Below, piece after piece: positions 96 through 44,245 of a DNA stretch of 64,000 nucleotides (position 1 is the stretch's first letter; every line of letters begins with the position of its first letter). The DNA comes from Candidatus Marinacidobacterales bacterium (lineage in GTDB: Bacteria > Acidobacteriota > Vicinamibacteria > Marinacidobacterales > DATDRI01): contig OZ245365.1 of assembly GCA_965226495.1 (NCBI GenBank), positions 928,001 to 992,000 on the forward strand, written 5' to 3'. The notes beneath the pieces were generated by a model, which had not been told where the DNA came from, made no database searches, and saw only the letters and a program-made list of their open reading frames with translations. A program made the translations under genes and the position numbers.

Positions 96-3000
96 ATGAG
101 GGTACGGACATTGACGCTCGTTATTGCCGGGATGGCGTTGGCCTCTCAAGCTCCGCATCTTCAAGGAGAGACCGCCGAGCTGGCTTTCGATTCTTTATTC
201 AATCTAGGTGCCGTCCTGGAAGATCGCAATGGGGATGGCATTGCCGACTTCGTCAACGTCCGGATCGTGGTTCCGGAGGCGGCCTCGCCATCCGACATCT
301 CGGGAGCGGCAGAAATCGCCGCCCGGCTCGGCTACGAGACCACGGCAACGGACATACCGCTGGTTGTAGCCGACACCGGCATCGAGCCGGCCTCGGCCGG
401 CCAACCGCTCATCCTCGTGGGCCGGAACAATAAATGGGTGGACGAGAAGAAACTCGGTTCGGGCCAGCTAGCGGCGGGCCAGGGCGCCGCTGTTCTGGTT
501 GGCTCGGCTTTCGGCTCGAACGATGCTCTGATGGTCTTCGGGGCGGATGAAGCAGGGAGCTTGGCAGCGGCTCGAGCGGTCGCGAGCCGCGTTCCGTTTG
601 TAGGAAAGATCGGCGGGGCCACGTTCGCGACGGTAGAAACGGATGTCGAAAACTTCCTTTCCGAAAAGGACATCCGACCAGCCTCCCCTCCGCGGTCGAC
701 GCGAATGGTCACGGATTCGAGCCCGAATACCGTTAGGGTTTCGGTCGACGTGCGGCTCTCGAGTCAACAGCAAGTCCGAGCGGCGCAGGCGGCCCTTCGG
801 TCGCTGGCGGGGGCGCACCGGCAGGGTCGAAGCGGGGAGGTTTTGAGCTACCCGGGGCTTACGAGTCTCGAAGTGGAGCTTTCTGCGGAGGGTCTCCGAA
901 GGTCGGTGGTCATCCCGGGTGCGGCGGCTGTGGAGATGACGATGGCGGCTCCTCCGGGTAAGCCGGGGAGCAAACAGTTCGATCTCTCGAATCTTTACAG
1001 CATCGAGGGTCTGTTTGAAGACACCAACAACGACCTGATCCCGGACGCGAGCGTCACTGCTCTCATTCTGGGGGAGGGAAGCGCGCGGCCCGCGGTGGGC
1101 TGGCTGGCCACACGGCTGGGACTGGAATCGGCTGGAATCCGTCTGCCTCTCAGCGAGAGCGTTTCCAACCTTGAAGAGGTTCCCAAGGAGGGACATCCCA
1201 TCTTGATCGGAACCCAGGGAGATTTGATCGACCCTCTGCGAGAGCAGGGAAAACTCCGAGGCGGGGAGCTGGGTGCCGGGGAAGGGCTCGTGCAGGTGGT
1301 CCGTAAGGCGATTGACGACTCTGCCGCGGTGGTGGTGACCGGCGGGGACGAGGCGGGCTTGGACGCGGCGCTGGACTACGTGAGCCAGCGGCTGCCGCAC
1401 CTCGACGAGCGGGGCAAGGATCGGCCCACCCTGGGCGATGTGGTCGAGGAAGGAAGGAGATTTCTCGGCGCCCGCAACGCTTCCGGCCAAGCGGCCACCG
1501 CGATTTACAAGCTCGACCAGATGGTGTCGGACCTCGAGGGCAAAGATTTAGAGCGTCTCGAGGCGAAGGTTTTCATCGATAAGGCGAGCCCTGAGTTGAA
1601 GGGCTTCCTCGAGCAACGGCTTGGCTCGAAAGTCCGTGCCGACGAGCTAGAGGTTGAAGTAGCCAGCCTCAATATCCACGACTCGGTCACCTTGCATGAA
1701 GAGACGGTGGAGTTCCCTTGGGAGGTGGATGATTTCTGGAAGGTCTTCCGGGAGAAGCTTCTCCGTCGCGTGAAGTCGCGCTCGAAGGTGGAGCTCGAGG
1801 TGCGGCTCGGCGAGTCTCCCGAGATCCGGCGGGAGCTCGTGAAGCAGATCCGCTCCGAGCTGAAGCAGAAGGCCAAGAGGGGCACGGTGGAGGTTCAAGT
1901 GCTGTCCTCGTACAAGGCGGGCTACAGCTGGCTGACGGAAGTCGTCGCTCCGGCCATTCAGGGAAAGGACATCGGGAAGATCCGCGTCAGCTTTGCCGAG
2001 CTCAAGCCTGAAAAGTGGCAGGAGATCTACTCGAAGATCCGCTGGTTGCTGGAGCTTTACCCGGTCGATGAAGTGCTGGCTCGGGATCTGGGGATACCGC
2101 TGGGGTCGGTCGAGTTTGAGATGAAGGACGAAGACTCCCCGACCTACGAGGTCCTGGTGACCGACAAGCAAGGAGGAGAGCTCTACCGGGGAAGCTTCGA
2201 CGCGAAATACGTTATTCGTCCAATGTTCGACCAGTTTCCGGATTACGACAAAGTGCATGTGACAACGGGTTGGGTCACGGCCAAGGTGGACGGTAAGCCG
2301 GTGGTCGATGAGCGCATCGTGACCGACATCGAGAAATTCTGGGATCACTATCAAAAAGAAACGCTTCCTCGCGCTTACAGCCATATCATGGACCTGTACG
2401 AAGGCAAGCCGCGGGCGCGATACGCGCCTTACTTCGGAGAGCTGCGGGTCGATCTGACGATGAGCGAGCCCAACTTTCGCATCGGGATCGACGAGGAGAT
2501 CATCTCCTCGCTGGACGCCGTCCACGAGGACATCTATTTCGATACCATCGCCTTTTTCGACGTGATGGGCATGCGGACGTCGGAGGAAAAGCTCTGGCAT
2601 CCGGGCCGGATTCTGCCCTATATGCGCCCGACCGAGAAAGGAGGGCCGGGGAAAGCAGTGATCCGTTTCACCGGCAAGCCGGCCGGTTACCCTCGAGTGG
2701 TGGTTCGTTTCCAGGAGCGAGGCGGTGAGACGACGGAGCGCAAGCTGGAGATCGCGCCGATGGAGATCGACCCCCCTCGGGCGGCAGCGGTGAGGGTGCG
2801 TGGGGGCTCCAATCGTCTGGAGAAGCTATTCCTGGAATGCAAGGTCGACACCGAGCGGGATGAGAGGGAGGCTCTCTTGCTCCGGGCGCGAGAGGAGCAG
2901 GTGGACCGTTTGATCCTCTCCCAGGAGCAGGCGGTGGCGATGGTGGAGGCGTTAGCGGAGCTGCAGCAGAGGGGGCTTTACACCGAGGCGTTTGGGTATC

Positions 3001-4292
3001 CGGCTCTCGAGGAGCTCGATTTCGTCTTTCAAGTGGGAGAAAAAGAGGCAGCCGCCTCACTGCGGTCCAGCGGGAAGAAACCACAACAGGATATCAAGAC
3101 TGTAGCGAAAGGCTATCAACACCGGGGGGAGCGTATCGTTCATTGGGATGCTCCGATCAGCCCCAAGGAAGCCGAGCAAATGGTGGCGAAGCTAGACACT
3201 TTCCCCGAGTTCACGGCCTATCACGCCGGCCGGTCGTTTCTGGGCCAGGACATCTGGGCGATGGATGTGATGCTGCCGGTGGAAGCCAGTCACTGGTCCC
3301 AGGCCAAGGCCAGCACCGTCAAGCCGGTCCTCATTATCTCGGGCCGCCAACACGCCAACGAGGTTTCGAGCACCAGCCACATACTCCGTCTCGCCGAGCT
3401 AGTGGCCACCAAGGAGGAGTACAAGCGTTATCTCGAGCGGGTCAACGTGGTCATCCACCCGATTACCAACCCGGACGGCGCCGCGCTTGCCTATGAGTTT
3501 TACCAGATCACCCCCGACTTCATCCTACATGCGGGCTATCTCGGCTCGCTCGGAATCGATATGACCACCCAGATGTGGGAGAAGGATCCTATCTACCCGG
3601 AGGCGAAGGTCCGTACCGAGCTGTGGAGAACCTGGCTTCCGGACATCTTCCTCAATCCGCACGGCTACCCCAAGCACGAGTGGGTGCAGTACTTCGCCGG
3701 CTACGCGGCCTGGGTGCGGGCCCGCTTCCCCACGAACCACGCGTGGGCCGGCCCTCGGGGCTGGTACACCAGCGTACGCTATGTGGACGACCCCAAGTAC
3801 CCGCACCACAAGGAGGTTGCTTTCGCCCTGCGTGACTACGTCGTCAAAGGTATCCTCAGCGAGCCGGCGGTGATGGCAATGAACGAGCGCATGTACTCCC
3901 GCTATGACCGGTACGGGGGGAGGTTCGATCCCGAGAACTTCAAACGCGACTACTATGAGCGTGTCCGCATTTATGAGGCGCTCAAGGGAGGGAAGCCGGA
4001 CCCGAAATCGAGCGATTTTGGCACGCGCTACCCGAACGTCACGGTCAAATCATGGGGCACGGAGGCTCCCGACGAAACCGCCTATGGAGATTGGATGAAG
4101 CTGGTTGCCTCCGCCGGGTTTCAGTTCGACTTGGCCAACCTGAAATATCTCTACGATTCCACCTATGAAGTGAAAAGAACCCACGAGCGTCTTGGGGAAA
4201 CGGTACGGTTTGCGACAATTAGGCCGAGGCCGCCTCGGCCGGGTAAGTCGAGTACGTCGAGTACTGAAGAGAAGCCCACATCCGAACCGTAA
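96..4292 (+). CDS. Giant exported M14-family zinc metallopeptidase/amidase, paralog 1 (1398 aa)
   Basis: RBS AAGGAG; signal peptide; C-terminal M14 motifs GRQHANE (HxxE), HPITNPDG, NPHGYP, TEAPDET; two N-terminal DxNxD + 'AARLG' modules. Confidence 0.85.
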   Translation: MRVRTLTLVIAGMALASQAPHLQGETAELAFDSLFNLGAVLEDRNGDGIADFVNVRIVVPEAASPSDISGAAEIAARLGYETTATDIPLVVADTGIEPASAGQPLILVGRNNKWVDEKKLGSGQLAAGQGAAVLVGSAFGSNDALMVFGADEAGSLAAARAVASRVPFVGKIGGATFATVETDVENFLSEKDIRPASPPRSTRMVTDSSPNTVRVSVDVRLSSQQQVRAAQAALRSLAGAHRQGRSGEVLSYPGLTSLEVELSAEGLRRSVVIPGAAAVEMTMAAPPGKPGSKQFDLSNLYSIEGLFEDTNNDLIPDASVTALILGEGSARPAVGWLATRLGLESAGIRLPLSESVSNLEEVPKEGHPILIGTQGDLIDPLREQGKLRGGELGAGEGLVQVVRKAIDDSAAVVVTGGDEAGLDAALDYVSQRLPHLDERGKDRPTLGDVVEEGRRFLGARNASGQAATAIYKLDQMVSDLEGKDLERLEAKVFIDKASPELKGFLEQRLGSKVRADELEVEVASLNIHDSVTLHEETVEFPWEVDDFWKVFREKLLRRVKSRSKVELEVRLGESPEIRRELVKQIRSELKQKAKRGTVEVQVLSSYKAGYSWLTEVVAPAIQGKDIGKIRVSFAELKPEKWQEIYSKIRWLLELYPVDEVLARDLGIPLGSVEFEMKDEDSPTYEVLVTDKQGGELYRGSFDAKYVIRPMFDQFPDYDKVHVTTGWVTAKVDGKPVVDERIVTDIEKFWDHYQKETLPRAYSHIMDLYEGKPRARYAPYFGELRVDLTMSEPNFRIGIDEEIISSLDAVHEDIYFDTIAFFDVMGMRTSEEKLWHPGRILPYMRPTEKGGPGKAVIRFTGKPAGYPRVVVRFQERGGETTERKLEIAPMEIDPPRAAAVRVRGGSNRLEKLFLECKVDTERDEREALLLRAREEQVDRLILSQEQAVAMVEALAELQQRGLYTEAFGYPALEELDFVFQVGEKEAAASLRSSGKKPQQDIKTVAKGYQHRGERIVHWDAPISPKEAEQMVAKLDTFPEFTAYHAGRSFLGQDIWAMDVMLPVEASHWSQAKASTVKPVLIISGRQHANEVSSTSHILRLAELVATKEEYKRYLERVNVVIHPITNPDGAALAYEFYQITPDFILHAGYLGSLGIDMTTQMWEKDPIYPEAKVRTELWRTWLPDIFLNPHGYPKHEWVQYFAGYAAWVRARFPTNHAWAGPRGWYTSVRYVDDPKYPHHKEVAFALRDYVVKGILSEPAVMAMNERMYSRYDRYGGRFDPENFKRDYYERVRIYEALKGGKPDPKSSDFGTRYPNVTVKSWGTEAPDETAYGDWMKLVASAGFQFDLANLKYLYDSTYEVKRTHERLGETVRFATIRPRPPRPGKSSTSSTEEKPTSEP

Positions 4293-4357
4293 CAAAGGGT
4301 GCACGGAGAAAGAGAACGTCTGGCTCACACTGACAATTGAAACGGTGTAAGAAACTG

Positions 4358-6595
4358 ATGGCCCATCGTCCTCTGCTGGTGGGAGGAGGCCCGCTCCGGC
4401 CGGTCCGGGCTCTTCTCGTCCTCACCACGCTCCTCTTGGTCGGGACGGAGGAACTTGCCGCGAGCCCTCGTCAGGTTCAGGCGGCCGCCGAACACGAAAC
4501 CGTCCTGCGCGCGATCCCGGTGTCTGAGCCTCCGAGACTAGATGGGGTTCTGGACGAGCCGCTCTGGCAGGACGCTCCTCTGTTCGACAGGTTCCTCCAG
4601 CAAGTTCCGGACGAGGGGAAGCCGGCCACGGAAAGAACGGAAGTCCGGATCGTTTACACTCGTGACAAGCTGTATTTCGGGGTCATGGTGTTTTACAGCG
4701 ATCCGAACAAGATGATTGCCAACGAGCTTCGCTACGATCAGGCTCGCATGTATGCCCAGGATGACACCTTCTCCATCATGCTGGACACCTTTCACGACCA
4801 TCGTAACGGCTATCTGTTCCTCATCAACGCACTAGGGACGCGCAACGAATGGGCCTGCACCGAGGAAGGGCGTCACTGGAACCGATACTGGGATCCGGTG
4901 TGGGACGTGGCGACCCGGGTGGGGCCCGACGGGTGGTCGGCGGAGGTGGAAATTCCTTTCAAGAGCCTTCGCTATGACGGTGAGAGTGGCGAGTGGGGCA
5001 TCAACCTCCGTCGGGCGATTCTGTATAAGAACGAGTGGGTTCACGCGACCCTCATTCCGCCTGGGTATAACCACCCCTCTCAAGGAATCGGGAAGCTGTC
5101 TTCGGCGGCGGTGCTCGAGGGGCTGGACGGCATCACCGAAAGCCGGAACCTCGAGTTCAAACCGTTTGTAACTGCCGCGGCAGTCGAGACTGACGTCGAA
5201 ATCCCCGGAGTTGTTCCAAGCAGCGACATCCAGCCGGGGATCGACATCAAGTACGGGTTTACGCCCAACCTGAACCTCGACCTGACCGTCAACACCGACT
5301 TTTCCCACGTCGAGGTGGACCAGCAGCAAATCAACCTCACTCGTTTCGGACTCTTCTTTCCGGAGAAACGTGCGTTTTTTCAAGAGGGCCAAGGAATCTT
5401 CGACTTCGGCCAGGGGCGAGGGAACTACCGCGTGCTGCCCTTCTTTAGTCGAAGAATCGGACTAGAGGACGGCCGACCGGTACCTATTCGCGCCGGAGCC
5501 CGGCTCACCGGAAAGCTCGGCCCCTATAGTTTGGGTTTGCTCGGGATGCGGACCAAGGACGCGGGCCTCTACCCCGCCACATCGTTCTCCGCCCTCCGGC
5601 TCAAGCGAGACGTTCTCCAGAGGTCGAGCCTCGGTCTTCTTTTTACCGATCGCCGGCCGACCGGACCCGTCAATTCCTCAGCCAACCAGGTGGCGGGGCT
5701 CGACGCCAATTTCGCCTTCTTTGCCAAGAGCAAGGTGGATCTGTTCTGGGCCCGAAGCAATCAGGACGCACCCGGTCAGAGCTCCACTTCTTACCGCGCC
5801 CACCTACTTCTGGAGAGCGATCTGCTGGGTTTAGAAACGGACTGGATGCAGGTGGGCGACACCTTTAGTCCGGAAGTGGGTTTCGTCCAGAGAGACGATA
5901 TGGACCGGCGCTACCTCGGGCTGCAGGTGAGTCCGCGGCCGGGCCGGTGGGGCATGCGCAAGGTCTACTTTCGCTCCTCTGTGGACTATGTTGAAAACCT
6001 TCGGGGGCTACTCGAGACCCGTCACCTGGCGAGCGGCATCGAGATCGAGTTCGACAACGCCGATGAGCTCTCCGGCAATTGGGTGCGCTCTTACGAGGCC
6101 CTCGAACAACCCTTCTTAGTCGCGGGGCTTTTGGCGGTCGCACCGGGCGAGTATCGTTTCGACCATTGGAACGCTCGTTTCGTGTCTTCCCAACACCGCA
6201 ACGTTTCGGCAACGGTCGACCTGAGGGGCGGGGGCTTCTTCGACGGCACTCGTCGAGACCTCGGTGCGGCTACGAAGCTCAAGGTCAACCAGCATTTATT
6301 CTTTGACCTCGACTACTCGACCAGTGATATACGGCTCTTGGCGGGAGATCTCCGAACCCATCTGGCGGGTCTCAGAAGCAGTGTGGCTCTGAACACTCGG
6401 CTGTTTGGTGCCGCAGTGGTGCAGTGGAATAGCGTGAGCCGGGAGTTCGGAGTGAATGTTCGACTGCGCTACACGTATCGCCCGGGGAGTGACTTTTACA
6501 TCGTCTTCAACGAACGCATGACGCGCCCGGGCGATCTCTGGTTTTTGAACGAAAGAAGCCTCACCGTCAAATGGACTTACCTGTTTCAGGTCTAA
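4358..6595 (+). CDS. DUF5916-type outer-membrane protein with N-terminal CBM9-like domain, paralog 1
   Basis: PRLDGVLDEPLW, LDTFHDHRNGY, GWSAEVEIPFKSLRY, TVNTDFSxVEVD, FFPEKRxFFQEG, FFSRRIGL; barrel-like C-terminus KWTYLF; ATG 4358 chosen (ORF opens at 4337). Confidence 0.8.
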   Translation: MAHRPLLVGGGPLRPVRALLVLTTLLLVGTEELAASPRQVQAAAEHETVLRAIPVSEPPRLDGVLDEPLWQDAPLFDRFLQQVPDEGKPATERTEVRIVYTRDKLYFGVMVFYSDPNKMIANELRYDQARMYAQDDTFSIMLDTFHDHRNGYLFLINALGTRNEWACTEEGRHWNRYWDPVWDVATRVGPDGWSAEVEIPFKSLRYDGESGEWGINLRRAILYKNEWVHATLIPPGYNHPSQGIGKLSSAAVLEGLDGITESRNLEFKPFVTAAAVETDVEIPGVVPSSDIQPGIDIKYGFTPNLNLDLTVNTDFSHVEVDQQQINLTRFGLFFPEKRAFFQEGQGIFDFGQGRGNYRVLPFFSRRIGLEDGRPVPIRAGARLTGKLGPYSLGLLGMRTKDAGLYPATSFSALRLKRDVLQRSSLGLLFTDRRPTGPVNSSANQVAGLDANFAFFAKSKVDLFWARSNQDAPGQSSTSYRAHLLLESDLLGLETDWMQVGDTFSPEVGFVQRDDMDRRYLGLQVSPRPGRWGMRKVYFRSSVDYVENLRGLLETRHLASGIEIEFDNADELSGNWVRSYEALEQPFLVAGLLAVAPGEYRFDHWNARFVSSQHRNVSATVDLRGGGFFDGTRRDLGAATKLKVNQHLFFDLDYSTSDIRLLAGDLRTHLAGLRSSVALNTRLFGAAVVQWNSVSREFGVNVRLRYTYRPGSDFYIVFNERMTRPGDLWFLNERSLTVKWTYLFQV

Positions 6596-7455
6596 GCTTC
6601 CGGCAACAATCCCAGCGCTTTCGCCTGATCCAGTGTTCGCTTGGCTCCTTTGAGGTGGAGCTCTTCAATCAGCTCCCCGTCCAAGCTCGTCACCGAGCTG
6701 CCCTGTTTCATGGCTTTTTCCATCGCCGCCGCGACTTTCGTTGCACGGGCCACCTCGGACGGCGTGGGCGAGAAGATCTCATTAATGGTAGCAACCTGGG
6801 CCGGATGGACCGCGGTCTTGCCGTCGAAGCCTAGCAAGCGAGCGCGGCGAGCGCTGCGGTCGAGCGCCTCGTCGTCGAGGTACTCGAAGGTGGGTGTGTC
6901 GAAGGCGAATACATCCGTGCCGGCGGCTCGAGCCGCGTGGACCACTTGACTCCGGGCGAAGAAAATCTCGCGCTCCTCGGCGTCCGGTTGCATCCGCATG
7001 CTTTCCCGGTAGTCCGCGGCGCCAAGGACGAGCCCGGCGACCCGCGGCGAGCACCGTGCCAGCGAAGCGACGTTCAGCACTCCCGCCGCCGTCTCAATCA
7101 TCAGGAACAAGGGCGTCGCCTCGCCAAGCTTCTCGTCCACCGGGGTCACGTCATCTTCATCGCTTACCTTGGGAAGCACCACGCCGTCGGGGCGAATGCC
7201 GGCGATGGCCTCGATGTCTCGGGCTCCCCAGGGAGAGGAGAGAGAATTGGCACGGACGAAGACCTCGGCCCCTCCAAAATCGACTTCTGGAATGAGCCGG
7301 GCGACTTGCTCGCGAGCCTGGTCCTTGGCGTCGGGATGGACGCCGTCCTCGAGATCCAGGATCAGGACATCGGCGCCCCGGCGTCCGGCCTTCCGGATCA
7401 TCTTCTCAGAGGATCCCGGGGTGTATAGAAGTGAGCGCTTCAGCGGGGCTGCCAT
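6592..7455 (-). CDS. CitE/HpcH-HpaI family CoA-ester lyase (citrate lyase beta-like; malyl/citramalyl-CoA lyase-like)
   Basis: RSLLYTPG, LDLEDGV, VRAN, LPKV, MIETAAG, GFDGKTAVHPAQV; start at MAAPLKRS; stop overlaps the convergent DUF5916 stop. Confidence 0.85.
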   Translation of the reverse strand: MAAPLKRSLLYTPGSSEKMIRKAGRRGADVLILDLEDGVHPDAKDQAREQVARLIPEVDFGGAEVFVRANSLSSPWGARDIEAIAGIRPDGVVLPKVSDEDDVTPVDEKLGEATPLFLMIETAAGVLNVASLARCSPRVAGLVLGAADYRESMRMQPDAEEREIFFARSQVVHAARAAGTDVFAFDTPTFEYLDDEALDRSARRARLLGFDGKTAVHPAQVATINEIFSPTPSEVARATKVAAAMEKAMKQGSSVTSLDGELIEELHLKGAKRTLDQAKALGLLPEA

Positions 7456-7528
7456 GCCGGGTATGGTAGCTGCGGCCGCAGCTCCGCCGCCACCATCATC
7501 AGCCCTCCGTCTCCGGTGAGCCGGTTTC

Positions 7529-7556
7529 TTGAAAGGCAACACACTTGCGGTACTAT
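7529..7556 (+). promoter_or_regulatory. Putative sigma70-type promoter for the MmgE/PrpD gene
   Basis: TTGAAA (7529-7534) N16 TACTAT (7551-7556) in the divergent intergenic region. Confidence 0.35.
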
Positions 7557-7628
7557 ACCAGGCACAACCTGTCGGAACATCAAGACGGGTGCGGAAATCT
7601 CGCGTTCTTACGTCAATCTGGAGGTCGG

Positions 7629-8984: not shown

Positions 8985-9122
8985 CCATCATTCAGTACCC
9001 CCGCCTCGGTGGGAATGGCGCCACGGCACTGGATCGTGCTTAAATGCCGAGAATCTCGGCAGGCGTTCACGCCCACAAGACCCTCAATTGGACGCGACGC
9101 CAACTCTAACCGACAAACGTTG

Positions 9123-11342: not shown

Positions 11343-11380
11343 TGGGCCCAAGTTTCGAGTAATGAACTGAGGTGTATGGT

Positions 11381-35840: not shown

Positions 35841-35847
35841 AAAGCTC

Positions 35848-37539
35848 ATGGATGATCGAAACGCGAGGACGCGAAGGTCGCCGTTAGCTGTTCTTATTCT
35901 TACTGCGTCGCTGCTAACGGCTCAGACCGGTGGCGAGACATCGGCGCAGTCCATCATCGGGCGCAATGGTTTGGTCACGACGTCTCACCATCTCGCCTCG
36001 CACACCGGTCTCCGCATTCTCCAAGAGGGAGGGAACGCCTTCGACGCGGCCGTTGCTTCGGCGGCGGTTCTTGCGGTGGTCAACCCGTTCATGGCGGGAA
36101 TGGGAGGTGTGGGCGGATACGCCCTGCTCTATGATTCCGAGTCCAAGGAGACGGTAGCTCTCGACTTCATAGGCACCGCGCCTCAGTCGGCCACCGTGGA
36201 AATGTACCAGGGCGATAAGCTCTGGGATTTCGCGAAACGCGCCACCACCGGATATCTCGCGCCCCTGGTGCCGGGCAATGTTGCGGGCTGGGCCGCCATC
36301 CACGAGCGCTATGGATCGTTGAGCTGGGCCCAAATTTTCGCTCCCGCCATTGAGTACGCCGAAAATGGATTCGCACTCACACCGCGCGTGCAACGTTCGA
36401 TGACCACGGGCGAGATGTCGGTGGTCAAGCGCTACCCTTACGGGCGCGGTATCTTCAAAAACGGCAAGGACCCGTGGAAACCCGGAGAGGTCTGGGTGCA
36501 GAAGGATCTCGCCGAAACCCTCAAAGCGATCGCGGCGAACGGGCCGGGCGAGTTCTACGAAGGAGCGATCGCGAAGAAAATCGCGGAGCACTTCCAAGCC
36601 AACGGGGGCCTCATGACCGCGGCCGACCTGGCGGCCTATCGGGTTCGGTGGAGCGAACCGATCGCGACGACCTACCGGGACTATCGCGTTCTGACCCATG
36701 GCCCGGGCTCTTCTGGGATGACGATCCTCCAGTGGCTAAACGTTCTCGAGGGCTACGATCTCGAGGCCCTGGAGCGCAACAGCCTCGAGTACATCCATTT
36801 GGTGGCCGAGGTAGCAAAGCTCGGGTTTTTGGACGACGATGTCTACAACTCGGGGAGGCCGCGACCGGAACTACCGCTCGAGAAACTCATCTCCAAGGAA
36901 TACGCCGCGCAGCAACGAGAGCGAATCAACAAGGCGGAGGCGCAGTTTTACCCCGCGGCCCGTCCCGACTCCGTCTCGAAGCTCGGCGAGCACACCAGTC
37001 ACCACACCGTCGTCGACAAGGACCACAACATCGTCACCATCACGCAGACTCTAATGTACGCCTCGGGTGTGGTCGTTCCGGAGACCGGTGTCTTCTTCAA
37101 CAACGGGATGTGCTATTTCAGTCTCGAACCGGGCCACCCGGACGAGATCCTGGGAGGAAAACGGCCCCGCTTCGTGATGAGTCCGACCATCGTCTTCCGG
37201 GGCGAAAGGCCGTATCTGGCACTCGGTGCGGCCGGCGGATGGACGATTCCTCAGACGATCCTTCAGACGCTCCTCAACGTGTTGGATTTTCGCATGGACG
37301 TGGAAAAAGCGGCCTCCGGGCCGCGATTCATACTCCGTTATCTTCGAAACTCGATTCCCTACGTACCCGGTACCGATATGAGTGTGGATAGCGGGATCTC
37401 GAGTGATGTGAAAAAGGAGCTGGAGGCCCGGGGACACCGCATCATCGACTCCGAGCGGCCGGGCCGAGCGCTCAACGTCATCCTCATCGATCCTCGGAGC
37501 GGTGCCCTGTGGGGCTCGGGTGGTGCGGTAACCTATTGA
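35848..37539 (+). CDS. GGT-family Ntn hydrolase with non-canonical acyl pocket, paralog 2
   Basis: Paralog of 29629-31347; H-TSHHTVVD; GAAGG; starts 7 bp after the M14 paralog 4 stop. Confidence 0.88.
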   Translation: MDDRNARTRRSPLAVLILTASLLTAQTGGETSAQSIIGRNGLVTTSHHLASHTGLRILQEGGNAFDAAVASAAVLAVVNPFMAGMGGVGGYALLYDSESKETVALDFIGTAPQSATVEMYQGDKLWDFAKRATTGYLAPLVPGNVAGWAAIHERYGSLSWAQIFAPAIEYAENGFALTPRVQRSMTTGEMSVVKRYPYGRGIFKNGKDPWKPGEVWVQKDLAETLKAIAANGPGEFYEGAIAKKIAEHFQANGGLMTAADLAAYRVRWSEPIATTYRDYRVLTHGPGSSGMTILQWLNVLEGYDLEALERNSLEYIHLVAEVAKLGFLDDDVYNSGRPRPELPLEKLISKEYAAQQRERINKAEAQFYPAARPDSVSKLGEHTSHHTVVDKDHNIVTITQTLMYASGVVVPETGVFFNNGMCYFSLEPGHPDEILGGKRPRFVMSPTIVFRGERPYLALGAAGGWTIPQTILQTLLNVLDFRMDVEKAASGPRFILRYLRNSIPYVPGTDMSVDSGISSDVKKELEARGHRIIDSERPGRALNVILIDPRSGALWGSGGAVTY

Positions 37540-37543: not shown

Positions 37544-38557
37544 TTAAGCCCACTCTGTCCGAAATCCCGATCTCAACCGATCGTGGGGATCCAAAACGAA
37601 CTGATGGAACCCGGTGATGTGGGCCGAGCCCGTTATCTCGGGTACCACCGCCTTCCGGCCCGCGACGTCGGTTTCTTCGAGGATCCGACCCCGGAAGACA
37701 CCGTCGGTAACGCTTTCGACCCACACCTCCTCGCTCACTTTTAATTGACCCTTGGCGTGGAGCACCGCCATCCGGGCGCACGTTCCGGTGCCGCCCGGCG
37801 ACCGGTCGAATTGTCGCGGACCGAAGACGTGCACGTTCCGGTACGTCCTTTTAGGATCCTTAGGCTCGGTAAGGATGGTGGCGATGTTGATGCGGTTGCT
37901 CTGCTCGATCTCAGGATGTTGGACCGAAAGATGCTCGTTGGCTGCTTCCATGACCCGCATCCCGACGTCGACGACGTTTTTGACGTTTTGCAGCGATACC
38001 TCCACTCCGACGGCTCGGGCGTCGAAGAACACGAACCAGTTGCCTCCGTAGGCGATATCCACCGTTACTTTGCCGATGCCGGGCACTGCCAACGACACAT
38101 CTAGTTGTTCGGCGTATGCTGGCACGTTGCGGAAAGAGACGCTCTCCGCTCTCCCGTCCTTCACGCTGACGATCGATTCGACGAGGCCGGCCGGCGTTTC
38201 CAGTTTGAATCGCGTCCGCGGCTCTTCGACAGGAACCATTCCGAGCTCGACGAGCGCCGTCGAGACCCCGATGGTGGCGTGCCCACACATGCTCATGTAG
38301 CCACCGTTGTCCATGAAGAACGCACCCCAAGCAGCGTCGGGAGAGAGCGGCTCGGTCAGGACGCACCCGTACATATCCTTGTGGCCCCTCGGCTCGGCGA
38401 CGAGCGCCGTGCGGAGGCCGTCCATGTGCTTCCGAAAGTACGCTAGCTTCTCGGCCATGGTGCTCCCGGCGATGTGCGCGATCCCTCCGGTGACGATTCG
38501 AGTCGGCTCTCCCTCGGTGTGCGTGTCCACCGCGGTGATCCATCGCGAAGCCTGCAT
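37544..38557 (-). CDS. Proline racemase superfamily protein (Cys/Gly variant)
   Basis: DTHTEGEPTR, EPRGHKDMYG, MCGH, DIAYGGN, DRSPGGTGT. Confidence 0.9.
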   Translation of the reverse strand: MQASRWITAVDTHTEGEPTRIVTGGIAHIAGSTMAEKLAYFRKHMDGLRTALVAEPRGHKDMYGCVLTEPLSPDAAWGAFFMDNGGYMSMCGHATIGVSTALVELGMVPVEEPRTRFKLETPAGLVESIVSVKDGRAESVSFRNVPAYAEQLDVSLAVPGIGKVTVDIAYGGNWFVFFDARAVGVEVSLQNVKNVVDVGMRVMEAANEHLSVQHPEIEQSNRINIATILTEPKDPKRTYRNVHVFGPRQFDRSPGGTGTCARMAVLHAKGQLKVSEEVWVESVTDGVFRGRILEETDVAGRKAVVPEITGSAHITGFHQFVLDPHDRLRSGFRTEWA

Positions 38558-38572: not shown

Positions 38573-39880
38573 CTAGTCTCGCCCATCGCGGAGCGGCCGA
38601 AGGTTCCATAGCGTGAAATTCAAGAAGCTCGACACCACCGCCATGACCAAGATGATGTTGAACGCGTCCTGCCAGCCGTACGCGTCGATGAGGAAGCCCA
38701 TCCCAACTCCGGTAAGGATCGCCCCCACCGACCCGACCGCGTCGATGATCCCCGCCGCGGTGGCCGATGAGTACTTCCACCCGAAATCCATCGCAACCGC
38801 GCCGGCCAACAAAGAGTACGGCCCGTAAAGTGTAAAACCGACCAGACCCAAGGAGATCATCAGCCACATCGTCTCATCCCCCGGTACTTGGCTGAACAAG
38901 TAGAGGGAACCGGTCAAGAGTACACCCATGATGGCCAAGACCGGACCTCGTCGCGCGCCCATTCTGTCCGAAATCCAACCCGTCGTGATCGAGCCCGCCG
39001 AGCCCAGGAGGGGGAAGATCGCGGACGTGAGGGCGGCGGTTCCGATTCCCATGCCGCTCTGCATCAGGTAGTCCACCGACCAGCCCCAGAAGATATACCG
39101 GATGATCGAGAGGAAGAGATAGCTTAGGCAAACGACCCAGAACCACTTGTTGGAAAGCATCCCGCGCAGCCAGCGGTTCGCCTCGATCCGAGTTGGCGTC
39201 TCCTCGTGCCGACCGGAAGCGACACCGAGTTCTGGTGGATCCCCCGAGGCGACGCCGGCCGTGTACTCGTCGATATCGGAAAGCCCCTGCAATGCCGGCG
39301 ACGGTTTGACGAGCGTTGCGAGCGCGATTCCGACCAATGCTAAGAAAGCCGCGTGGGTCCAAAACAAGCCCGACCAGCCGATGGCGACGATCAAAAACGC
39401 CGCGGAGGTCCTGGCGACGAAATCTCCGATTTGATAGCTCAGCGACATGACTCCCATCGCTCGCCCAGTCTCTCTACTCGTGTACCACCGGGCCATGATG
39501 GGCACGATGGAAAGCCAACCCATCGACTGGAAGTACGCGTTGGTTGCCCAAATCAAGACGAAGAACGTCAGCTCGCGCCCAAAGCCGAACGCGATGTTGC
39601 AGGCGACGGAGCCGGCGATGCCGACGAGTAGCATGACCTTGCCGCCGATTCGATCACCCAGGAATCCGTTGGCGAGTTTCGCGACGGCATAGAAGGTGTA
39701 GTACGCGGAAAGGATGAGGCCGGTTTCGGTATGGGAATACTGGAAGATGTCGCCGATGACCGGTAGCGCGACCGGGAGCGTCACGCGGCAGAAATAGTAG
39801 CCGACGTACCCGATGAACAGCAGTACCGTCAGGAATAGCCGGTGCCTATGAAATCGGCTAGAGGGCTCCGGTCCCCACAT
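38573..39880 (-). CDS. MFS transporter, OPA (GlpT/UhpT-like) family
   Basis: YVGYYFCR, GFLGDRIGG, NAYFQSMGW, GWISDRMGARR, ATAAGIIDAVGSVG; about 12 hydrophobic segments. Confidence 0.85.
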   Translation of the reverse strand: MWGPEPSSRFHRHRLFLTVLLFIGYVGYYFCRVTLPVALPVIGDIFQYSHTETGLILSAYYTFYAVAKLANGFLGDRIGGKVMLLVGIAGSVACNIAFGFGRELTFFVLIWATNAYFQSMGWLSIVPIMARWYTSRETGRAMGVMSLSYQIGDFVARTSAAFLIVAIGWSGLFWTHAAFLALVGIALATLVKPSPALQGLSDIDEYTAGVASGDPPELGVASGRHEETPTRIEANRWLRGMLSNKWFWVVCLSYLFLSIIRYIFWGWSVDYLMQSGMGIGTAALTSAIFPLLGSAGSITTGWISDRMGARRGPVLAIMGVLLTGSLYLFSQVPGDETMWLMISLGLVGFTLYGPYSLLAGAVAMDFGWKYSSATAAGIIDAVGSVGAILTGVGMGFLIDAYGWQDAFNIILVMAVVSSFLNFTLWNLRPLRDGRD

Positions 39881-39927
39881 CGCTCATCATCGGCTCTGGT
39901 AATAGCGAGTAATTTCCCGCTGACCGG

Positions 39928-40350
39928 TTACTTATCAAGCTCCTCTTGGACAATGTAGGCACGCATACGATCGATCTTACCTTCGCGCACATGTTCCACC
40001 GATGCGACCCAGAATTGCACCCTCGTTCCAGGTTTCCCTCCGCCTATGGCCTTCGTGCTCCTTGTGCCTATTCCCGAGATTTCTACCAAAACCTGATCGT
40101 CATGAGCAAATATATTGTCAATACTCCATTTCAGATCTGGAAACGAAGCAAGGTATCCCCGTATCTCCTCTTCAAGCTCCCCTCGGCCGTTTTTTGGAGG
40201 TTCTCCAAAATCTTCATCCACGACGTCATCTGAAACGACAGAAAGGGACCGCTCGATATCGTGTTCTGCGAAGCCTTCTATATGGGTTCTCACTAGGTCA
40301 ATATTGGCCCTTTCTTCTTCTGTGTGGTCCGTGTTACTGAGATTATTCAT
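39928..40350 (-). CDS. SnoaL-like/ester cyclase (NTF2-like) protein
   Basis: SFPDLKW, DDQVLVE, REGKI; RBS AGGAG; visibly AT-richer than its neighbours. Confidence 0.75.
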   Translation of the reverse strand: MNNLSNTDHTEEERANIDLVRTHIEGFAEHDIERSLSVVSDDVVDEDFGEPPKNGRGELEEEIRGYLASFPDLKWSIDNIFAHDDQVLVEISGIGTRSTKAIGGGKPGTRVQFWVASVEHVREGKIDRMRAYIVQEELDK

Positions 40351-40413
40351 TTCTATATTGCTCCTGTTATCAAGAATGAAAGGCGTGTTTTCTGATCGCC
40401 CCAGTTGGTATTT

Positions 40414-42114
40414 CTACAACTTGGTGCTTTCGTTGGGCGCGGCATTCTTTGTGATATGAGCCGCCATTTCCTTCAGGAGCTCCGCGTTGGTGATAGGGGT
40501 CCACCCGTGTCCTTTGCTCGGCCGCCCAAACCGGAACGAGCCGGCGTAGTAGGGCGCGGACGTGTTTTCGAGAAACTCTTCCATGAGGTCGACCGGCTGA
40601 TTGAAATAGTAGTTGTCCATGTCTCCGCAGATAAAGTGCAGCTTGCCCACCAAGTCTCGTCCGATGCGGGGCCAGTTTTGCTCGAGGTAGTATCGGAGGT
40701 CGTACCCATTGTCTCTCCAGTAGAGGGCGACTTCGCGATCGATCTCTCCGGTCCGCTTGTTCCACAGCGGCTTGGGGTAACCGTCATCGCCCACGGGTCC
40801 AAACGAGGCCTCCCACGCTTCCAGGTAGTCGGTGGATCGCCCTCGGCTTCCGAGAACCGAGGCGAGTCGGCTGAGGTCCCGGATACTCTGAATCGGCTGC
40901 CCGTCGGCGGCACGGAATGCATAACGCTCCGGGGAGAGCTGACTGAGGTTCCATCCCGGCGCTTCGAATGCGTTGTCGTCCTCGTAGATATTGATGAGGA
41001 AGTGCCGTCGAAAATCGATGGGGTCTGGATAGTATACCCAGGCGCCGCCGAAAGACGTGGGATGGTGGGCTTGGAGCGCCAGCGCTTCGTACCCGCCGGT
41101 GGAGCCCCCGGTGAGCATGCGGGCGTATGAATGAGGGATCATCCTGTAGCGTTCCTCGAGATACGGAATCAGTTCCGTCAGGATCGCGTCCGCGTACGGC
41201 CCGTTGTTCGCCGAGTTCACCGCGTAGGAATCATCGAAATAGGGCGTGGGATGTTGGAAGGTGATCGCGATCATTCGTGGGAAGTCGTCGGCTATCCACG
41301 ACCGATAGAACTCGAATCCGTTCTCGACACCGCGCTCGAGCCGCGCCGCCTTGGCTGCCGGCGACTCGTCGGCCGGCTCGGTTTGGAAACCGAACGCGGG
41401 ATTGAGACTGAAGTGCCCTTGCTGGTAGACGGTTGGGTAGTAGACGTCGGGGTGTGTGTCGTAGCCCCGTGGCAGGAGGACGGTGGCGCCGATGAATATC
41501 GGGCGACCCCAAAACTCGGTTAGCAGTCTGCTCTCGAACTTCACTCGCTGGACCCATGGGTCGTCCTCGGGCACTTCGATCGGTGGGAGCTTCTCGGTCA
41601 CTTCGATCTCAACCGCGTAGCCCGCGTCGGGATTCAGGTGAACTAGCCGTTCATTGCTAAAGAGGTTTCCGGGCGCCCAATTGAAGTGCTGGCCCTCCCA
41701 TTGATCCATGTGGGCCCAGATCACGTGCCCATCGGCTCGGTGGAATTCGGTGTATACGTTGAGGAGGGCTTGCGCGTAGTATTCGCCGGGTGGGAGATCG
41801 CTGAGGCTTTCAAGGGGGTAACCCAAGGTCGACGAATCGATTACCGCGGCCTGTCCGGGTTGGAGTCGATCGATGTCGACGGCGAAGAACGGGACGCCCC
41901 GCGCGTTGGTGACCGGTTGGTGCCCGAGACTCCGCTGCCGAAGGGCGTTGCTGTTCGGCTCGGGCGAGAGGATTAGGTAGACGCGCCCCGTGATCGGCCC
42001 TGCATGGAGTGCCTTCGGAAAAGTTATCTCGAAATGCGACGAGGGATCGGAGGGCCCACAGGAGGTCAGGAAGCAAGCTAGGGCCGCGGCGATCGCGAAC
42101 TGCCGAAACGTCAA
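40414..42114 (-). CDS. Lipoprotein alpha/beta-hydrolase (putative esterase family)
   Basis: TTG start after GGAGGAGG; lipobox LTSC; GATVLLPRGY, NSANNGPY, nucleophile elbow TGGSTGG, GDMDNY. Confidence 0.8.
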   Translation of the reverse strand: MTFRQFAIAAALACFLTSCGPSDPSSHFEITFPKALHAGPITGRVYLILSPEPNSNALRQRSLGHQPVTNARGVPFFAVDIDRLQPGQAAVIDSSTLGYPLESLSDLPPGEYYAQALLNVYTEFHRADGHVIWAHMDQWEGQHFNWAPGNLFSNERLVHLNPDAGYAVEIEVTEKLPPIEVPEDDPWVQRVKFESRLLTEFWGRPIFIGATVLLPRGYDTHPDVYYPTVYQQGHFSLNPAFGFQTEPADESPAAKAARLERGVENGFEFYRSWIADDFPRMIAITFQHPTPYFDDSYAVNSANNGPYADAILTELIPYLEERYRMIPHSYARMLTGGSTGGYEALALQAHHPTSFGGAWVYYPDPIDFRRHFLINIYEDDNAFEAPGWNLSQLSPERYAFRAADGQPIQSIRDLSRLASVLGSRGRSTDYLEAWEASFGPVGDDGYPKPLWNKRTGEIDREVALYWRDNGYDLRYYLEQNWPRIGRDLVGKLHFICGDMDNYYFNQPVDLMEEFLENTSAPYYAGSFRFGRPSKGHGWTPITNAELLKEMAAHITKNAAPNESTKL

Positions 42115-42262
42115 AGCGTACCTCCTCCTAATTCATCGAGTCGGTATTCCCACGAGCTTGTGGATGTCGAGCCGGCAACAAGGTACTCTCCACGGGCAGG
42201 CGCGTCAACGTGACCGGCGCTCCCCAGAGCGTCCCCACCCTTGGCCGAGAGGGAGGCTTCAG

Positions 42263-44245
42263 ATGCTCGTATGGAAACGGATTAATTGTGTTCTCTTCCT
42301 GGTCCTTGCCGGGGCGACCTGTGCTTGCACTGCCAGTGGGCCTAGTGAGCCACGCAAGATCACGATCGAAGATGCCCTCGAGATCAAGGACACCGGGGCA
42401 CCCGCGTGGTTGCCTGGGGGCCGGGAGGTGTCTTTCTCCTGGAGCCGGGGTGGGGAAAGCGAGCTATGGGCGGCGGACGCGGCTGCGACCGAGAGAGGGC
42501 AACCAGGAGCCCCGACGCTCAGGCAGCTGGCGCCCCTTTCGGACCGGTCGGTTCCCACGATTTCCCCGGATGGGAAGTATCTCGCGTACGTCTCGAAGGA
42601 TCACATTTGGAAGATCCCGTTGGAAGGCGGCCGGCCGGTTCGCTTGACCACCGAGGAGGGCAGTTACCCTTCGAGGGGGATGGTCCTCAACTGGTCGCCG
42701 GACGGAAAACACATCGCGTTCTTCGTCCAGCGCGAAGACTCGCTGGCGCGACCGGGCTCACCGGCGGGGTTCGGCTACCAGACCGACGTCGGCATCGTAG
42801 CCGCTTCCGGAGGCGAGCCGAAGATGATCGCCAGCACCACCAGGGACGAGGACTCACCCATTTGGACGCCCGCGTCGGATCGCCTGGTTTTCTTAAGACG
42901 GTTCGAGGACTGGAAGGGCTACGAGATGTGGATCACCAACCTCGACGGCTCGGAGCAGCGACGGTTGGTGACCGAAACCTACGAGCGAGGTGTAGAGGAG
43001 TTCCGATTCGACGGCAACCACCACTTCTCCCCGGATGGGAAGCGCATCGTGTATCTCTCCAGTCGAACCGGTTACAACCACCTTTGGGTCGCACCCGTCG
43101 CGGGAGGCGACCCGGTTGAGATCACCACCGGACCGTACGTCGACTACCACCCCCGGTGGTCCCCCACCGAGGATCGAATCGTCTTCATCGGGAGTCGTGC
43201 CGGCGACGTCGAGGAAAGACACGTATGGGTGGTGGACGCTGATGGCGGCGAGCCGGTGCGGGTCTCGCCTGATGGTTTCTGCACGAATCCAGCATGGTCG
43301 CCGGACGGCAGCCGCGTGGCATACCGACGATCGAGCACTACCGAACCGCCGGAGATCGTCGTCCAGGAGGCTACGCCGGGGTCTCCCGTTTTTCGCCTGA
43401 CGGAGTCAAGGCCGGATCCCGTGGTCACCGCGGGCTTCGTCGAGCCCGAGGCCGTCCGCTATCCCAGCCGCGACGGTACCGAGGTTCCGGCCATTCTCCT
43501 GCGGCCCCGCGGGAACGAGCGGTCGGGCCCCGGGCTGTTGTTTTTCCACGGCAAGGGCGGCATCAACCTCAAGGGCTGGGGAGGCCTGCGCTACTACGCC
43601 TTCCACCAGTACCTGGTGCAGCAGGGTTACAGCGTGCTCTTCATCAACTGGCGCGGCACTCATATCGGGTACGGTGCCGACTTCGAGCGCGCCAACTACC
43701 GGGACTACGCTGGCGGCGAGCTCGACGACGTGGTGGCGGGCGCCGAGTTCCTCGACAAAGAAGTGGGAGTGGATCCAACGAGGATTGCCTGTTGGGGAAG
43801 CAGCTACGGCGGGTACATGACGATGTTGGCTATCACCAAGGCCCCTGAGGTCTGTAGCGCCGGGATCTCTCGCGTGGGCGTGTCCGACTGGGAGCTGATG
43901 CTCGAGCAGCCCGACAGGAAGCTCTACAACGTCCGCGTCCTCGCCAAGCTCGGCGACCCGGCCGAGAACCCGGAGATTTGGCAACGCGCCGCACCGATCC
44001 GCTACGCGGCCGAAGCCCGCTCCCCGCTCCTCATCCTTCAGGGACAGGACGATCCCGGCGTGGTGCCGGAGCAGGGGGAGACTCTCTACGACGCCATGAT
44101 CAAAGAGGGGAAGACGGTGGAGTACGTTGCCTACATCGGGGAGGGGCACGGCTTCACCCACACCGGGTCGCTCCGCGACCAATACAACCGGATGGTTGCC
44201 TTCCTCACCGAGCACAATGGTGTGCACACGGATTCGACGGACTGA
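42263..44245 (+). CDS. S9 peptidase with PD40 propeller, paralog 2
   Basis: Highly similar to 23031-25088, including the GGAGGCTTCAGATGCT start context; GSSYGG, GQDDPGV, GEGHGF. Confidence 0.9.
   Translation: MLVWKRINCVLFLVLAGATCACTASGPSEPRKITIEDALEIKDTGAPAWLPGGREVSFSWSRGGESELWAADAAATERGQPGAPTLRQLAPLSDRSVPTISPDGKYLAYVSKDHIWKIPLEGGRPVRLTTEEGSYPSRGMVLNWSPDGKHIAFFVQREDSLARPGSPAGFGYQTDVGIVAASGGEPKMIASTTRDEDSPIWTPASDRLVFLRRFEDWKGYEMWITNLDGSEQRRLVTETYERGVEEFRFDGNHHFSPDGKRIVYLSSRTGYNHLWVAPVAGGDPVEITTGPYVDYHPRWSPTEDRIVFIGSRAGDVEERHVWVVDADGGEPVRVSPDGFCTNPAWSPDGSRVAYRRSSTTEPPEIVVQEATPGSPVFRLTESRPDPVVTAGFVEPEAVRYPSRDGTEVPAILLRPRGNERSGPGLLFFHGKGGINLKGWGGLRYYAFHQYLVQQGYSVLFINWRGTHIGYGADFERANYRDYAGGELDDVVAGAEFLDKEVGVDPTRIACWGSSYGGYMTMLAITKAPEVCSAGISRVGVSDWELMLEQPDRKLYNVRVLAKLGDPAENPEIWQRAAPIRYAAEARSPLLILQGQDDPGVVPEQGETLYDAMIKEGKTVEYVAYIGEGHGFTHTGSLRDQYNRMVAFLTEHNGVHTDSTD

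Follow-up and report, generated by a model that had tools for sequence, protein, structure and literature searches.

Separately conserved gene modules and duplicated, predicted exported hydrolases in a genomic island of a Candidatus Marinacidobacterales bacterium

Positions 96-44245 of a 64,000-nucleotide stretch (hereafter the window; G000:C1:928001-992000) of the genome of a Candidatus Marinacidobacterales bacterium (Acidobacteriota, Vicinamibacteria; GenBank assembly GCA_965226495.1, a single contig, OZ245365.1, of 6.34 Mb, referred to as G000) hold an island of genes for predicted exported hydrolases. The island encodes four giant M14-like metallopeptidases (M14a-d), two members of the gamma-glutamyltransferase (GGT) family, two S9 peptidases, an esterase and a Sortilin-Vps10/BNR protein (VPS10), together with two DUF5916 proteins, a TonB-dependent-receptor (TBDR) remnant, an MFS transporter, a proline-racemase homologue and CitE-like, MmgE/PrpD-family and SnoaL-like proteins (Table 1). 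With moderate confidence we interpret this island, which is conserved in the genus, as separately conserved modules that lie side by side and have been multiplied by duplication, and not as one dedicated pathway. The exported enzymes most likely scavenge peptides or other amide-linked organic matter in the cell envelope.

Families were assigned by profile matches to Pfam and NCBIfam, with Pfam run on the 18 large open reading frames (ORFs) and the SnoaL ORF covered by NCBIfam only. Export was judged by eye from the N-termini, and the statement in the first-pass annotation that the hydrolases and VPS10 are all exported depends on that reading; operons were inferred from gene spacing only. For comparison we used 41 genomes of the order, from families f1, f2 and f3, and extracted 40 stretches of at most 20 kb each from 23 of the 33 relatives with an M14 match. 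A wider sample consisted of 80 M14 loci from species genomes, at least 7 of which came from genomes already among the relatives. Two clades recur below under short names: GGT*, the GGT clade with a hydrophobic pocket, and ProR*, the proline-racemase homologue with a Cys/Gly active site.

The gene content and coordinates given in the first-pass annotation held in the Pfam and NCBIfam searches, as did its count of four giant M14 proteins and its duplicated families when the island proteins were searched with tblastn against the whole G000 genome for copy numbers and paralogue identities. M14a-d are the only giant M14 proteins in G000; M14b, M14c and M14d are 60-68% identical to each other and M14a is 44-47% identical to them. 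DUF5916a and DUF5916b are 82-83% identical and form a direct DNA repeat at 75-87%, S9a and S9b are 81-86% identical and form an inverted DNA repeat of 1985 nt at 84%, and the two GGT proteins are 56% identical. The 5' 300 nt of M14b (11393-11692) and M14d (31536-31835) are 85% identical, falling to 71-72% further on, which suggests that this tract is likely the product of gene conversion between the paralogues. With the DNA repeats and the IS-type integrase and AbiEii genes upstream, this probable conversion tract is among the signs of recent reshuffling. The island appears to have been assembled and amplified in large-genome lineages (G000, G002 and G026), with reshuffling still ongoing.

In G002, a member of the same genus, the island is syntenic and its genes are 82-96% identical (83% for the M14a ortholog). 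A region of about 100 kb in G026, from another family, contains matches to 7 M14, 7 GGT-family, 2 DUF5916 and 2 esterase genes as well as to VPS10 and a TBDR. Genes of the S9a/b type occurred in only two of the 41 genomes, G000 and G002, and the S9 peptidases are, as far as their distribution indicates, genus-specific additions; in G002, a gene for an M42 peptidase follows M14c.

The first module, A, consists of GGT* and/or the esterase, the MFS transporter and ProR*, and is conserved in three families of the order. ProR* adjoins the MFS gene in all eight genomes whose ProR* flank was read, and the esterase gene precedes MFS-ProR* in G000 (with the SnoaL ORF between them), G002, G026, G025 and G035, with orthologs 70-72% identical to the esterase in the last three. 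The order is GGT*-esterase-MFS-ProR* in G025, GGT*-MFS-ProR* in G019 and esterase-MFS-ProR* in G035, and the module stands beside M14 in G026 and G012. GGT* and ProR* are separated by 1.3-18 kb in eight of the nine genomes of genus g12 and lie on different contigs in the ninth, and GGT*-type genes were found in 19 of the 41 genomes. Judged by this spacing, GGT*/esterase, MFS and ProR* probably constitute one conserved module and putative operon. We infer the direction of flow as follows: the exported Ntn amidase (GGT*) and the esterase would set free a small product of acidic or imino-acid nature, the MFS protein (best match a PgtP/GlpT-type NCBIfam model, with a score under cutoff) would import this product, and ProR*, with its single Cys, would convert it by one-base chemistry, as in 3-hydroxyproline dehydratase, and not by racemisation. 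Liberation, import and conversion of a small compound, imino-acid-like or acidic, is the most likely role of the module. Being compact and testable, the putative operon could serve in the search for a new catabolic reaction.

Module B, made up of a TonB-type receptor, a giant M14 and VPS10, would bring an outer-membrane importer together with a large zinc peptidase or amidase that is associated with the envelope and has S-layer-like N-terminal domains. A giant M14 gene directly behind a TonB-type receptor is often seen in relatives, and 15 of the 80 wider loci have a TBDR gene next to M14. VPS10 adjoins a giant M14 of clade iii in six of seven f3 loci and in G001, and a full-length TBDR is present in five of the seven clade-iii f3 loci and in G001. 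The receptor frames of six relatives and of one paralogue are 943-1024 aa long and include a signal peptide and N-terminal domains; the receptor of the window lacks about 250 N-terminal residues. Here the module appears to have decayed to the receptor remnant and VPS10, which are 236 nt apart.

Module C pairs DUF5916 with a giant M14. Such pairs are present in G000, G002, G026 and L107, a Gemmatimonadaceae record in which DUF5916 is followed by M14, while the neighbours of the other DUF5916 paralogues in G000 are heterogeneous. DUF5916a and DUF5916b score 65.5 and 65.3 bits (cutoff 22.6), with only profile positions 5-96 of 572 aligned. Their Atlas score is 0.99 to DUF5916/CBM9_1 clusters, and the barrel is putative. 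A search of the literature library used here returned no paper mentioning DUF5916.

The CitE-like and MmgE/PrpD proteins would be the ends of module D, whose middle, encoding an acyl-CoA dehydrogenase (ACAD), CoA-transferase, MaoC hydratase, TPP enzyme and aldehyde dehydrogenase (ALDH), has been displaced. In G001 and G002 the order is PrpD, divergent from ACAD, CoA-transferase III, MaoC hydratase, TPP enzyme and ALDH, and then CitE and DUF5916a. DUF5916b precedes PrpD in G002 only, and DUF5916a is followed by M14a (G002 only) and then by a hydantoinase/oxoprolinase gene. G001 has the CoA cluster and DUF5916a and none of M14a-d. The ACAD-to-ALDH block of G000 is found some 14 kb upstream of the window, with three IS-type integrase genes and an AbiEii gene in between. 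The CitE-like protein scores 204 bits against TIGR01588 and 163 bits against RipC_Ccl, both under cutoff, and matches malyl-CoA lyase and CLYBL in the PDB; the best PDB matches of the MmgE/PrpD protein are IDS-epimerase, B. subtilis IRG1 and cis-aconitate decarboxylase; and the best NCBIfam match of the MaoC gene is RipB/Ich at 215.6 bits, under the equivalog cutoff. The first-pass annotation had CitE and PrpD process an acid released by the hydrolases; this gave way to the interpretation that the two are probably better explained as the split ends of a CoA-ester cluster of the itaconate/methylsuccinate type. The portion of PMC12290011 available to us describes such a degradation cluster in Pseudomonas and Cupriavidus, with the same five enzyme families, that is CoA-transferase, MaoC hydratase, CitE lyase, acyl-CoA dehydrogenase and MmgE/PrpD. 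Relative to the cluster as presented in that portion, the one seen here has an added TPP enzyme and aldehyde dehydrogenase and scores under the equivalog cutoffs, and in G000 it is split and flanked by DUF5916-M14 pairs.

With this CoA block, the integrases and a hydantoinase gene, the island extends upstream of the window. The latter gene, a fused hydantoinase A/B of the oxoprolinase family (1198 aa, G000:C1:924249-927845), ends 250 nt before M14a, and its best matches are caprolactamase subunits, under cutoff. In 8 of the 80 wider loci a homologue of its A-part and a giant M14 are no more than 10 kb apart, with the homologue directly downstream in 4 of them. Elsewhere in G000, HyuA-HyuB precede two DUF5916 genes. 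The segment G000:C1:915360-921905, with three rve_3 integrase ORFs (two of equal length and score), an HTH_38 ORF and an AbiEii-domain ORF, separates the relocated CoA-ester cluster from the island.

An integrated alternative had been put forward in the first-pass annotation, which saw in the island a system resembling a polysaccharide utilization locus (PUL) whose substrates would be peptides or amides that are N-acylated or unusual in another way. Uptake across the outer membrane (DUF5916, TBDR), hydrolysis in the periplasm (M14, GGT*, S9 and esterase), MFS import and cytoplasmic processing by CitE/PrpD and ProR* would follow each other in a single pathway. Recurrent co-location, which favours this alternative, is real. 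M14, GGT*, TBDR, DUF5916 and esterase-MFS-ProR* genes are found near each other in G002, G026, G028, L056, L062 and L107, including GGT*-TBDR-M14 trios in G028, L056 and L062, and the hydrophobic GGT pocket would suit an acyl group other than gamma-glutamyl. The PULs (SusC/SusD) and peptide-importing RagAB systems of Bacteroidota likewise combine exported hydrolases with a TonB-dependent receptor, and the overall design of exported hydrolases, receptor, carrier and cytoplasmic enzymes is of an already known kind. In contrast to those systems, the gene combinations vary, the sole receptor gene does not encode the intact TonB-dependent transporter with plug that marks a PUL, and neither a SusD-like gene nor a regulator was found among the 19 island genes with Pfam and NCBIfam, in a scan that covered ORFs of at least 60 aa.

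The neighbourhood comparison, which the first-pass annotation had named as its test, was favourable insofar as island families re-associate elsewhere (G002, G026, G028, L056 and L062), but it also went against a single pathway. In most of the 80 wider loci M14 has none of the other families beside it; apart from the receptor genes, the 80 loci contained S9 in 9, GGT in 5, VPS10 in 4, DUF5916, ProR and MFS in 3 each, esterase in 2 and SnoaL, CitE and PrpD in 1 each. In eight of the nine S9 loci the match is at only 24-29% identity; the remaining one holds the G002 ortholog (94%). In seven f3 genomes, small-genome relatives with both genes on one large contig, 176 kb or more separates GGT* from the giant M14 genes, no conserved neighbour set was seen around the single-copy M14 and GGT* genes of f3 genomes, and the "48%" M14 clade of f3 had no window-like neighbour in 13 of 13 loci, its flanks being heterogeneous. 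Adding the genus-specific S9 genes, the presence of the CoA cluster without M14a-d in G001 and the composition of that cluster, which is that of a known, self-sufficient pathway in the available portion of PMC12290011, we consider the integrated system unlikely.

Some observations nevertheless weigh against a reading as separate modules. In G009 and G013, GGT* has DUF5916 nearby, and in G035 it follows a TBDR. In two Gemmatimonadota loci (L088 and L092), an ACAD at 60-61% identity stands together with CitE or PrpD beside M14, which speaks for the integrated system, and in G000 and G002 M14 also adjoins the hydantoinase/oxoprolinase-family gene. That the families pair anew in various ways in distant genomes suggests more functional linkage than a mere patchwork. 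PrpD and DUF5916b are separated by 25 nt and DUF5916b and M14b by 30 nt, a spacing at which the three genes may now be co-transcribed. Scans for promoters and terminators were at background (17 versus 17.8 expected, and 19 versus 14.1). Finally, the loci examined were the best-scoring ones and not a random sample, and kin are not independent.

Four unrelated families had been noted to deviate at specificity or catalytic positions, and the alignments bore out every deviation: six positions in GGT, Cys/Gly in ProR*, DxxE in M14b and HGKGG in S9. GGTa and GGTb score 434.9 and 437 bits against TIGR00066 (cutoff 357.85) and are full-length homologues of E. coli GGT (PDB 2e0w, 281.7 bits) and cephalosporin acylase (PDB 2nlz, 263.3 bits). 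When aligned to 2e0w, both retain the nucleophile Thr and the oxyanion Gly-Gly, as in GGT and cephalosporin acylase, but lack the lid loop, and their six substrate-binding positions are Val/Ile, Met, Gly, Tyr, Phe and Val. In E. coli GGT these six probably correspond to Arg114, Asn411, Gln430, Asp433, Ser462 and Ser463, residues that presumably hold the amino and carboxyl groups of the gamma-glutamyl moiety. By family score and catalytic residues GGT* would thus be placed in the GGT family, but not by its gamma-glutamyl-binding residues, which appear to have been swapped for hydrophobic ones. All 8 of the f3 orthologs share exactly this pocket, and the rebuilt form is present in 11 of the 12 GGT-family genes of M14 loci outside G000. 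Among the five other GGT paralogues in G000, a single one (at about 2.14 Mb) is near-canonical, with the lid loop and four of the six positions (Arg, Asp and Ser, and Glu for Gln). Current rules name the GGT* clade gamma-glutamyltransferase although the gamma-glutamyl site is missing, which is likely to be a systematic mis-annotation. One GGT* copy of G026 (L022:17960-19087) has Asn at the position of the nucleophile Thr and may be inactive.

ProR* matches Pfam Pro_racemase with 405 bits, and about half of its residues are identical to those of proline racemase 7pb3, an estimate by eye from the alignment. It has retained the first catalytic Cys (MCGH), and the second site is Gly (DRSPGGTG), giving the pair Cys91/Gly255. 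Two paralogues in G000 are Ser/Cys and Cys/Cys. The Gly was retained in the orthologs examined from seven relatives, and Cys/Gly was seen in 103 of the 120 protein clusters nearest to ProR*, the other 17 being Cys/Cys proline racemases. Where named, the Cys/Gly clusters are called "proline racemase" or "proline racemase/trans-L-3-hydroxyproline dehydratase". ProR* has neither the two catalytic residues (Cys/Cys or Ser/Cys) of proline racemases and 4-hydroxyproline epimerases nor the full signature of trans-3-hydroxy-L-proline (t3Hyp) dehydratases, since its single Cys is accompanied by Gly and its score is under the equivalog. The best-scoring NCBIfam model is proline racemase (417 bits, cutoff 556), the t3Hyp dehydratase models give 340 versus 540 and 290 versus 550, and all equivalog cutoffs were missed. 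In the sections of PMC4113996 available to us, Cys/Cys racemases and epimerases, a Ser/Cys epimerase and single-Cys dehydratases with Thr at the second site are described, and the Cys/Gly case is not among the sites in those sections. In terms of these classes, ProR* shares the first catalytic Cys and the single-Cys site with t3Hyp dehydratase but has Gly where that enzyme has Thr and proline racemase has Cys.

Another alternative is that the enzymes degrade proteins or peptides rich in hydroxyproline, for instance material resembling collagen or spongin, with M14 and S9 trimming the peptides, GGT* or the esterase freeing the imino acid, the MFS protein importing it and ProR* acting like a 3-hydroxyproline dehydratase. 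The single Cys resembles that of the t3Hyp dehydratases in which Thr replaces the second Cys (PMC4113996, as far as available), and the t3Hyp-dehydratase model reaches the 340 bits given above. The island has S9 propeller peptidases, in L033 the M14 gene has an M24/PepQ gene as its neighbour, and many of the relatives are Candidatus Palauibacter or have isolate labels that we take to denote sponge or coral samples. Neither a pyrroline-2-carboxylate reductase gene nor any other gene of the hydroxyproline pathway was found in the island with Pfam and NCBIfam, and no collagenase gene was seen. With Gly and not Thr at the second site and proline racemase as the best model, we judge this version improbable.

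The S9 peptidases match PF00326 with 152-154 bits, in addition to PD40 and DPPIV_N, and have the Ser-Asp-His triad of the S9 family in an alpha/beta hydrolase domain with an N-terminal propeller. In S9a the GGSYGG motif, the Asp and the His align with solved S9 chains, and HGKGG occupies the position at which the aligned PDB chains have HGGP.

In the giant M14 proteins, PF00246 was matched over the N-terminal half of the profile only (33.8-48.8 bits, cutoff 21.6), with the alignment limited to the first ~115 profile positions. An AF2 model of the C-terminal part of M14c (pLDDT 83, pTM 0.86) aligned with M14 carboxypeptidases at a Z of 25.1 and an rmsd of 2.8 over 254 residues (VIA-align), with a Foldseek E of about 1e-11, and this domain is predicted with confidence to have the carboxypeptidase alpha/beta fold. 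It thus shares with the M14 metallocarboxypeptidases (CPA, CPB, CPD and CPN) the fold and, at the expected places, HxxE, a later His and an acidic residue, but is only 10-17% identical to them and is preceded by about 1000 extra N-terminal residues.

We aligned 129 distinct M14 domains to assess residue conservation. R114, E119, H175, D355 and E356 were invariant and H219 was present in 128 domains; position 116 was His in 122 and Asp in 7, and position 352 was Glu in 119 and Asp in 10, the Asp belonging to the clade that adjoins VPS10. By position, the zinc-ligand pattern of HxxE, downstream His and catalytic Glu appears to be present across the domains, and by position these residues presumably correspond to His69, Glu72, His196 and Glu270 of CPA. 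HxxE...H...E is retained in three of the four copies in G000 and DxxE is found in M14b. The variant, seen in the 7 domains with Asp, is kept in the M14b orthologs of G002, G026, G028, L062, L077 and L078, and on the evidence of this alignment the DxxE form is a stable orthologous subclade. The aligned region also contains an invariant His175-Ala-Gly and, as read from the sequence alignment, no Asn-Arg motif. In CPA the C-terminal carboxylate of the substrate is anchored by Asn144/Arg145/Tyr248, and His-Ala-Gly appears to occupy the region in which an Asn-Arg anchor would be expected.

The N-termini of M14a-d match PF05124 (S_layer_C), with two or three S_layer_C-like domains in the N-terminal ~1000 residues. 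Residues 50-166 gave a profile match to PDB 9fsa (E 1.4e-5), whereas a single-sequence PDB search with M14b returned no match at E <=0.01, so that a profile was needed. PDB 9FSA is the anchor dimerisation domain of the S-layer protein of Methanococcus voltae, according to the available part of PMC11410804. The similarity to that anchor, as it is described there, is weak, and here the host is bacterial and diderm and the domain is fused to an enzyme. The middle region of M14c (residues 520-1000) was modelled with a pLDDT of 84.5. Its Foldseek TM was at most 0.17 in rows at E <0.01 and at most 0.26 in any row listed, a wide VIA search peaked at a Z of 7.1, within the stated noise range of the tool, and the ESM Atlas gave no usable match for residues 40-1000. 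We consider this a confidently modelled region lacking a clear solved relative, which is not proof of a new fold.

The giant M14 family comprises 637 representative clusters at E <=0.001 and 1188 proteins at E <=1e-5 in a 90% collection, the fullest name being "M14 family metallopeptidase". The species-genome set has at least 565 loci, which belong to Acidobacteriota and Gemmatimonadota (Longimicrobiales, Palauibacter), and 34 of the 41 genomes of the order have a member (4 of 7 in f1, 13 of 17 in f2 and 16 of 16 in f3). Typical giant M14 genes are also carried by a contig with a Bifidobacteriaceae label (L058) and one with a Woeseiaceae label (L065), which are probably binning or labelling errors. 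In the literature library used here nothing linked Vicinamibacteria to M14 peptidases, and a search for Vicinamibacter with carboxypeptidase gave unrelated work only.

A more far-reaching reading is also conceivable: M14 giants, GGT*, DUF5916, TonB receptors, ProR* and the hydantoinase/oxoprolinase-type lactamase could be one cross-phylum guild of Acidobacteriota and Gemmatimonadota. In this guild the M14 giants would make up a surface array, S-layer-like and with enzymatic activity, from which the receptor is supplied, and a class of amide-linked natural products or imino-acid-rich polymers (e.g. acylated peptides or hydroxyproline-rich matrix proteins) would be captured and dismantled. It is chiefly the recurring and variable pairings that point to a functional relationship of the families as a guild, and we offer the full scenario as a speculation with a rather low chance of being correct. 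Both Vicinamibacteria and Gemmatimonadota are abundant, most of them have not been cultured, and their feeding is poorly known; the island brings together three large, unstudied clades (M14, GGT* and ProR*), none of which appears to have been characterised, in which the catalytic machinery was kept while substrate sites were rebuilt and then conserved.

We give little credence to the proposal that the giant M14 proteins are structural or self-processing proteins of the envelope or S-layer, or trimmers of cell-wall peptides, in a mere duplication hotspot whose genes share no substrate, because despite their S_layer_C domains and match to the M. voltae anchor dimerisation domain, their wide occurrence in the order, often in one or two copies with variable neighbours, and the coverage of M14c and M14d by contigs of two RNA libraries, the near-exceptionless conservation of zinc and catalytic residues argues for catalysis and the repeated adjacency to a TonB-type receptor suggests nutrient uptake.

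Table 1. Features of the island, with positions in the window.
Feature	Position	Strand	Description
M14a	96..4292	+	1398 aa, giant M14-like metallopeptidase, predicted exported; HANE...H...E in C-terminal domain
DUF5916a	4337..6595	+	752 aa, predicted exported; PF19313 E 5.5e-18; 44-nt gap after M14a
CitE-like acyl-CoA lyase	6592..7644	-	PF03328 E 6.7e-48; start probably near residue 64, ~7455
MmgE/PrpD-family protein	7545..8984	+	PF03972 and PF19305; start probably near 7626; divergent from CitE
DUF5916b	9009..11342	+	PF19313; 777-aa ORF, start probably near 9123; predicted exported
M14b	11372..15610	+	giant M14-like; Asp replaces first zinc His (RQDANE)
Multi-copy 390-aa gene	15921..17093	+	C-terminal HNH-like motif read by eye
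TonB-dependent-receptor-type remnant	17243..19393	-	716 aa; PF25183 positions 154-836 of 838
Sortilin-Vps10/BNR protein	19630..22989	+	1119 aa, predicted exported; Pfam
S9a peptidase	23031..25088	-	PD40/DPPIV-type propeller; 27 nt downstream of M14c
M14c	25116..29384	-	giant M14-like, 1422 aa; copy used for structure models
GGTa	29446..31347	+	GGT-family Ntn hydrolase, predicted hydrophobic acyl pocket; start probably near 29626
M14d	31524..35840	+	giant M14-like, 1438 aa
GGTb	35791..37539	+	second GGT-family hydrolase, same pocket; start probably near 35848
ProR*	37544..38557	-	proline-racemase superfamily; Cys/Gly active-site pair
MFS transporter, organophosphate/anion type	38573..39880	-	15 nt upstream of ProR*
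SnoaL/NTF2-like ORF	39928..40350	-	140 aa; TIGR02096 30 bits, under cutoff
Esterase-fold lipoprotein	40414..42114	-	566 aa; PF00756 30.9 bits; GGSTGG
S9b peptidase	41990..44245	+	start probably near 42260; divergent from esterase

The 390-aa gene between M14b and the receptor remnant stands outside the hydrolase set. It had no match in Pfam or NCBIfam and has at least 20 paralogues in G000, the top 14 full-length ones being 65-77% identical at the protein level, and an HNH/DUF222 gene is located at the equivalent junction beside M14b in G002. The SnoaL-like ORF has a GC3 of 0.47, against about 0.75 in its neighbours; it is 95% identical in G002 and has a 48% identical paralogue in G000.

Island DNA was detected at a word share of at least 0.6 in 18 runs of 6 studies. 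Contigs from two metatranscriptomic libraries of one study aligned without mismatch to M14c, with six listed pieces each, and these pieces lie outside the stretch used to find the runs; further pieces fell on M14d and S9b (S9b in one library). According to the warning of the tool, DNA can occur in RNA libraries and contigs show presence only. For GGTa and the segment from ProR* to the esterase there were no pieces from the two RNA libraries, which was not used as evidence, since contigs cannot show absence. Two DNA runs, X1 and X3, showed a one-base T insertion behind 44267 in about one third of the depth and a weakly supported joint that skips 40627-41206 (578 nt, inside the esterase gene), with only 21 letters on its shorter side.

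Downstream of the island, 50744-53707 and 54074-57067 are tandem paralogous genes for Ser/Thr kinases of about 990 aa with TPR arrays, followed by genes for DUF642, PD40 and LVIVD/Big-domain proteins.

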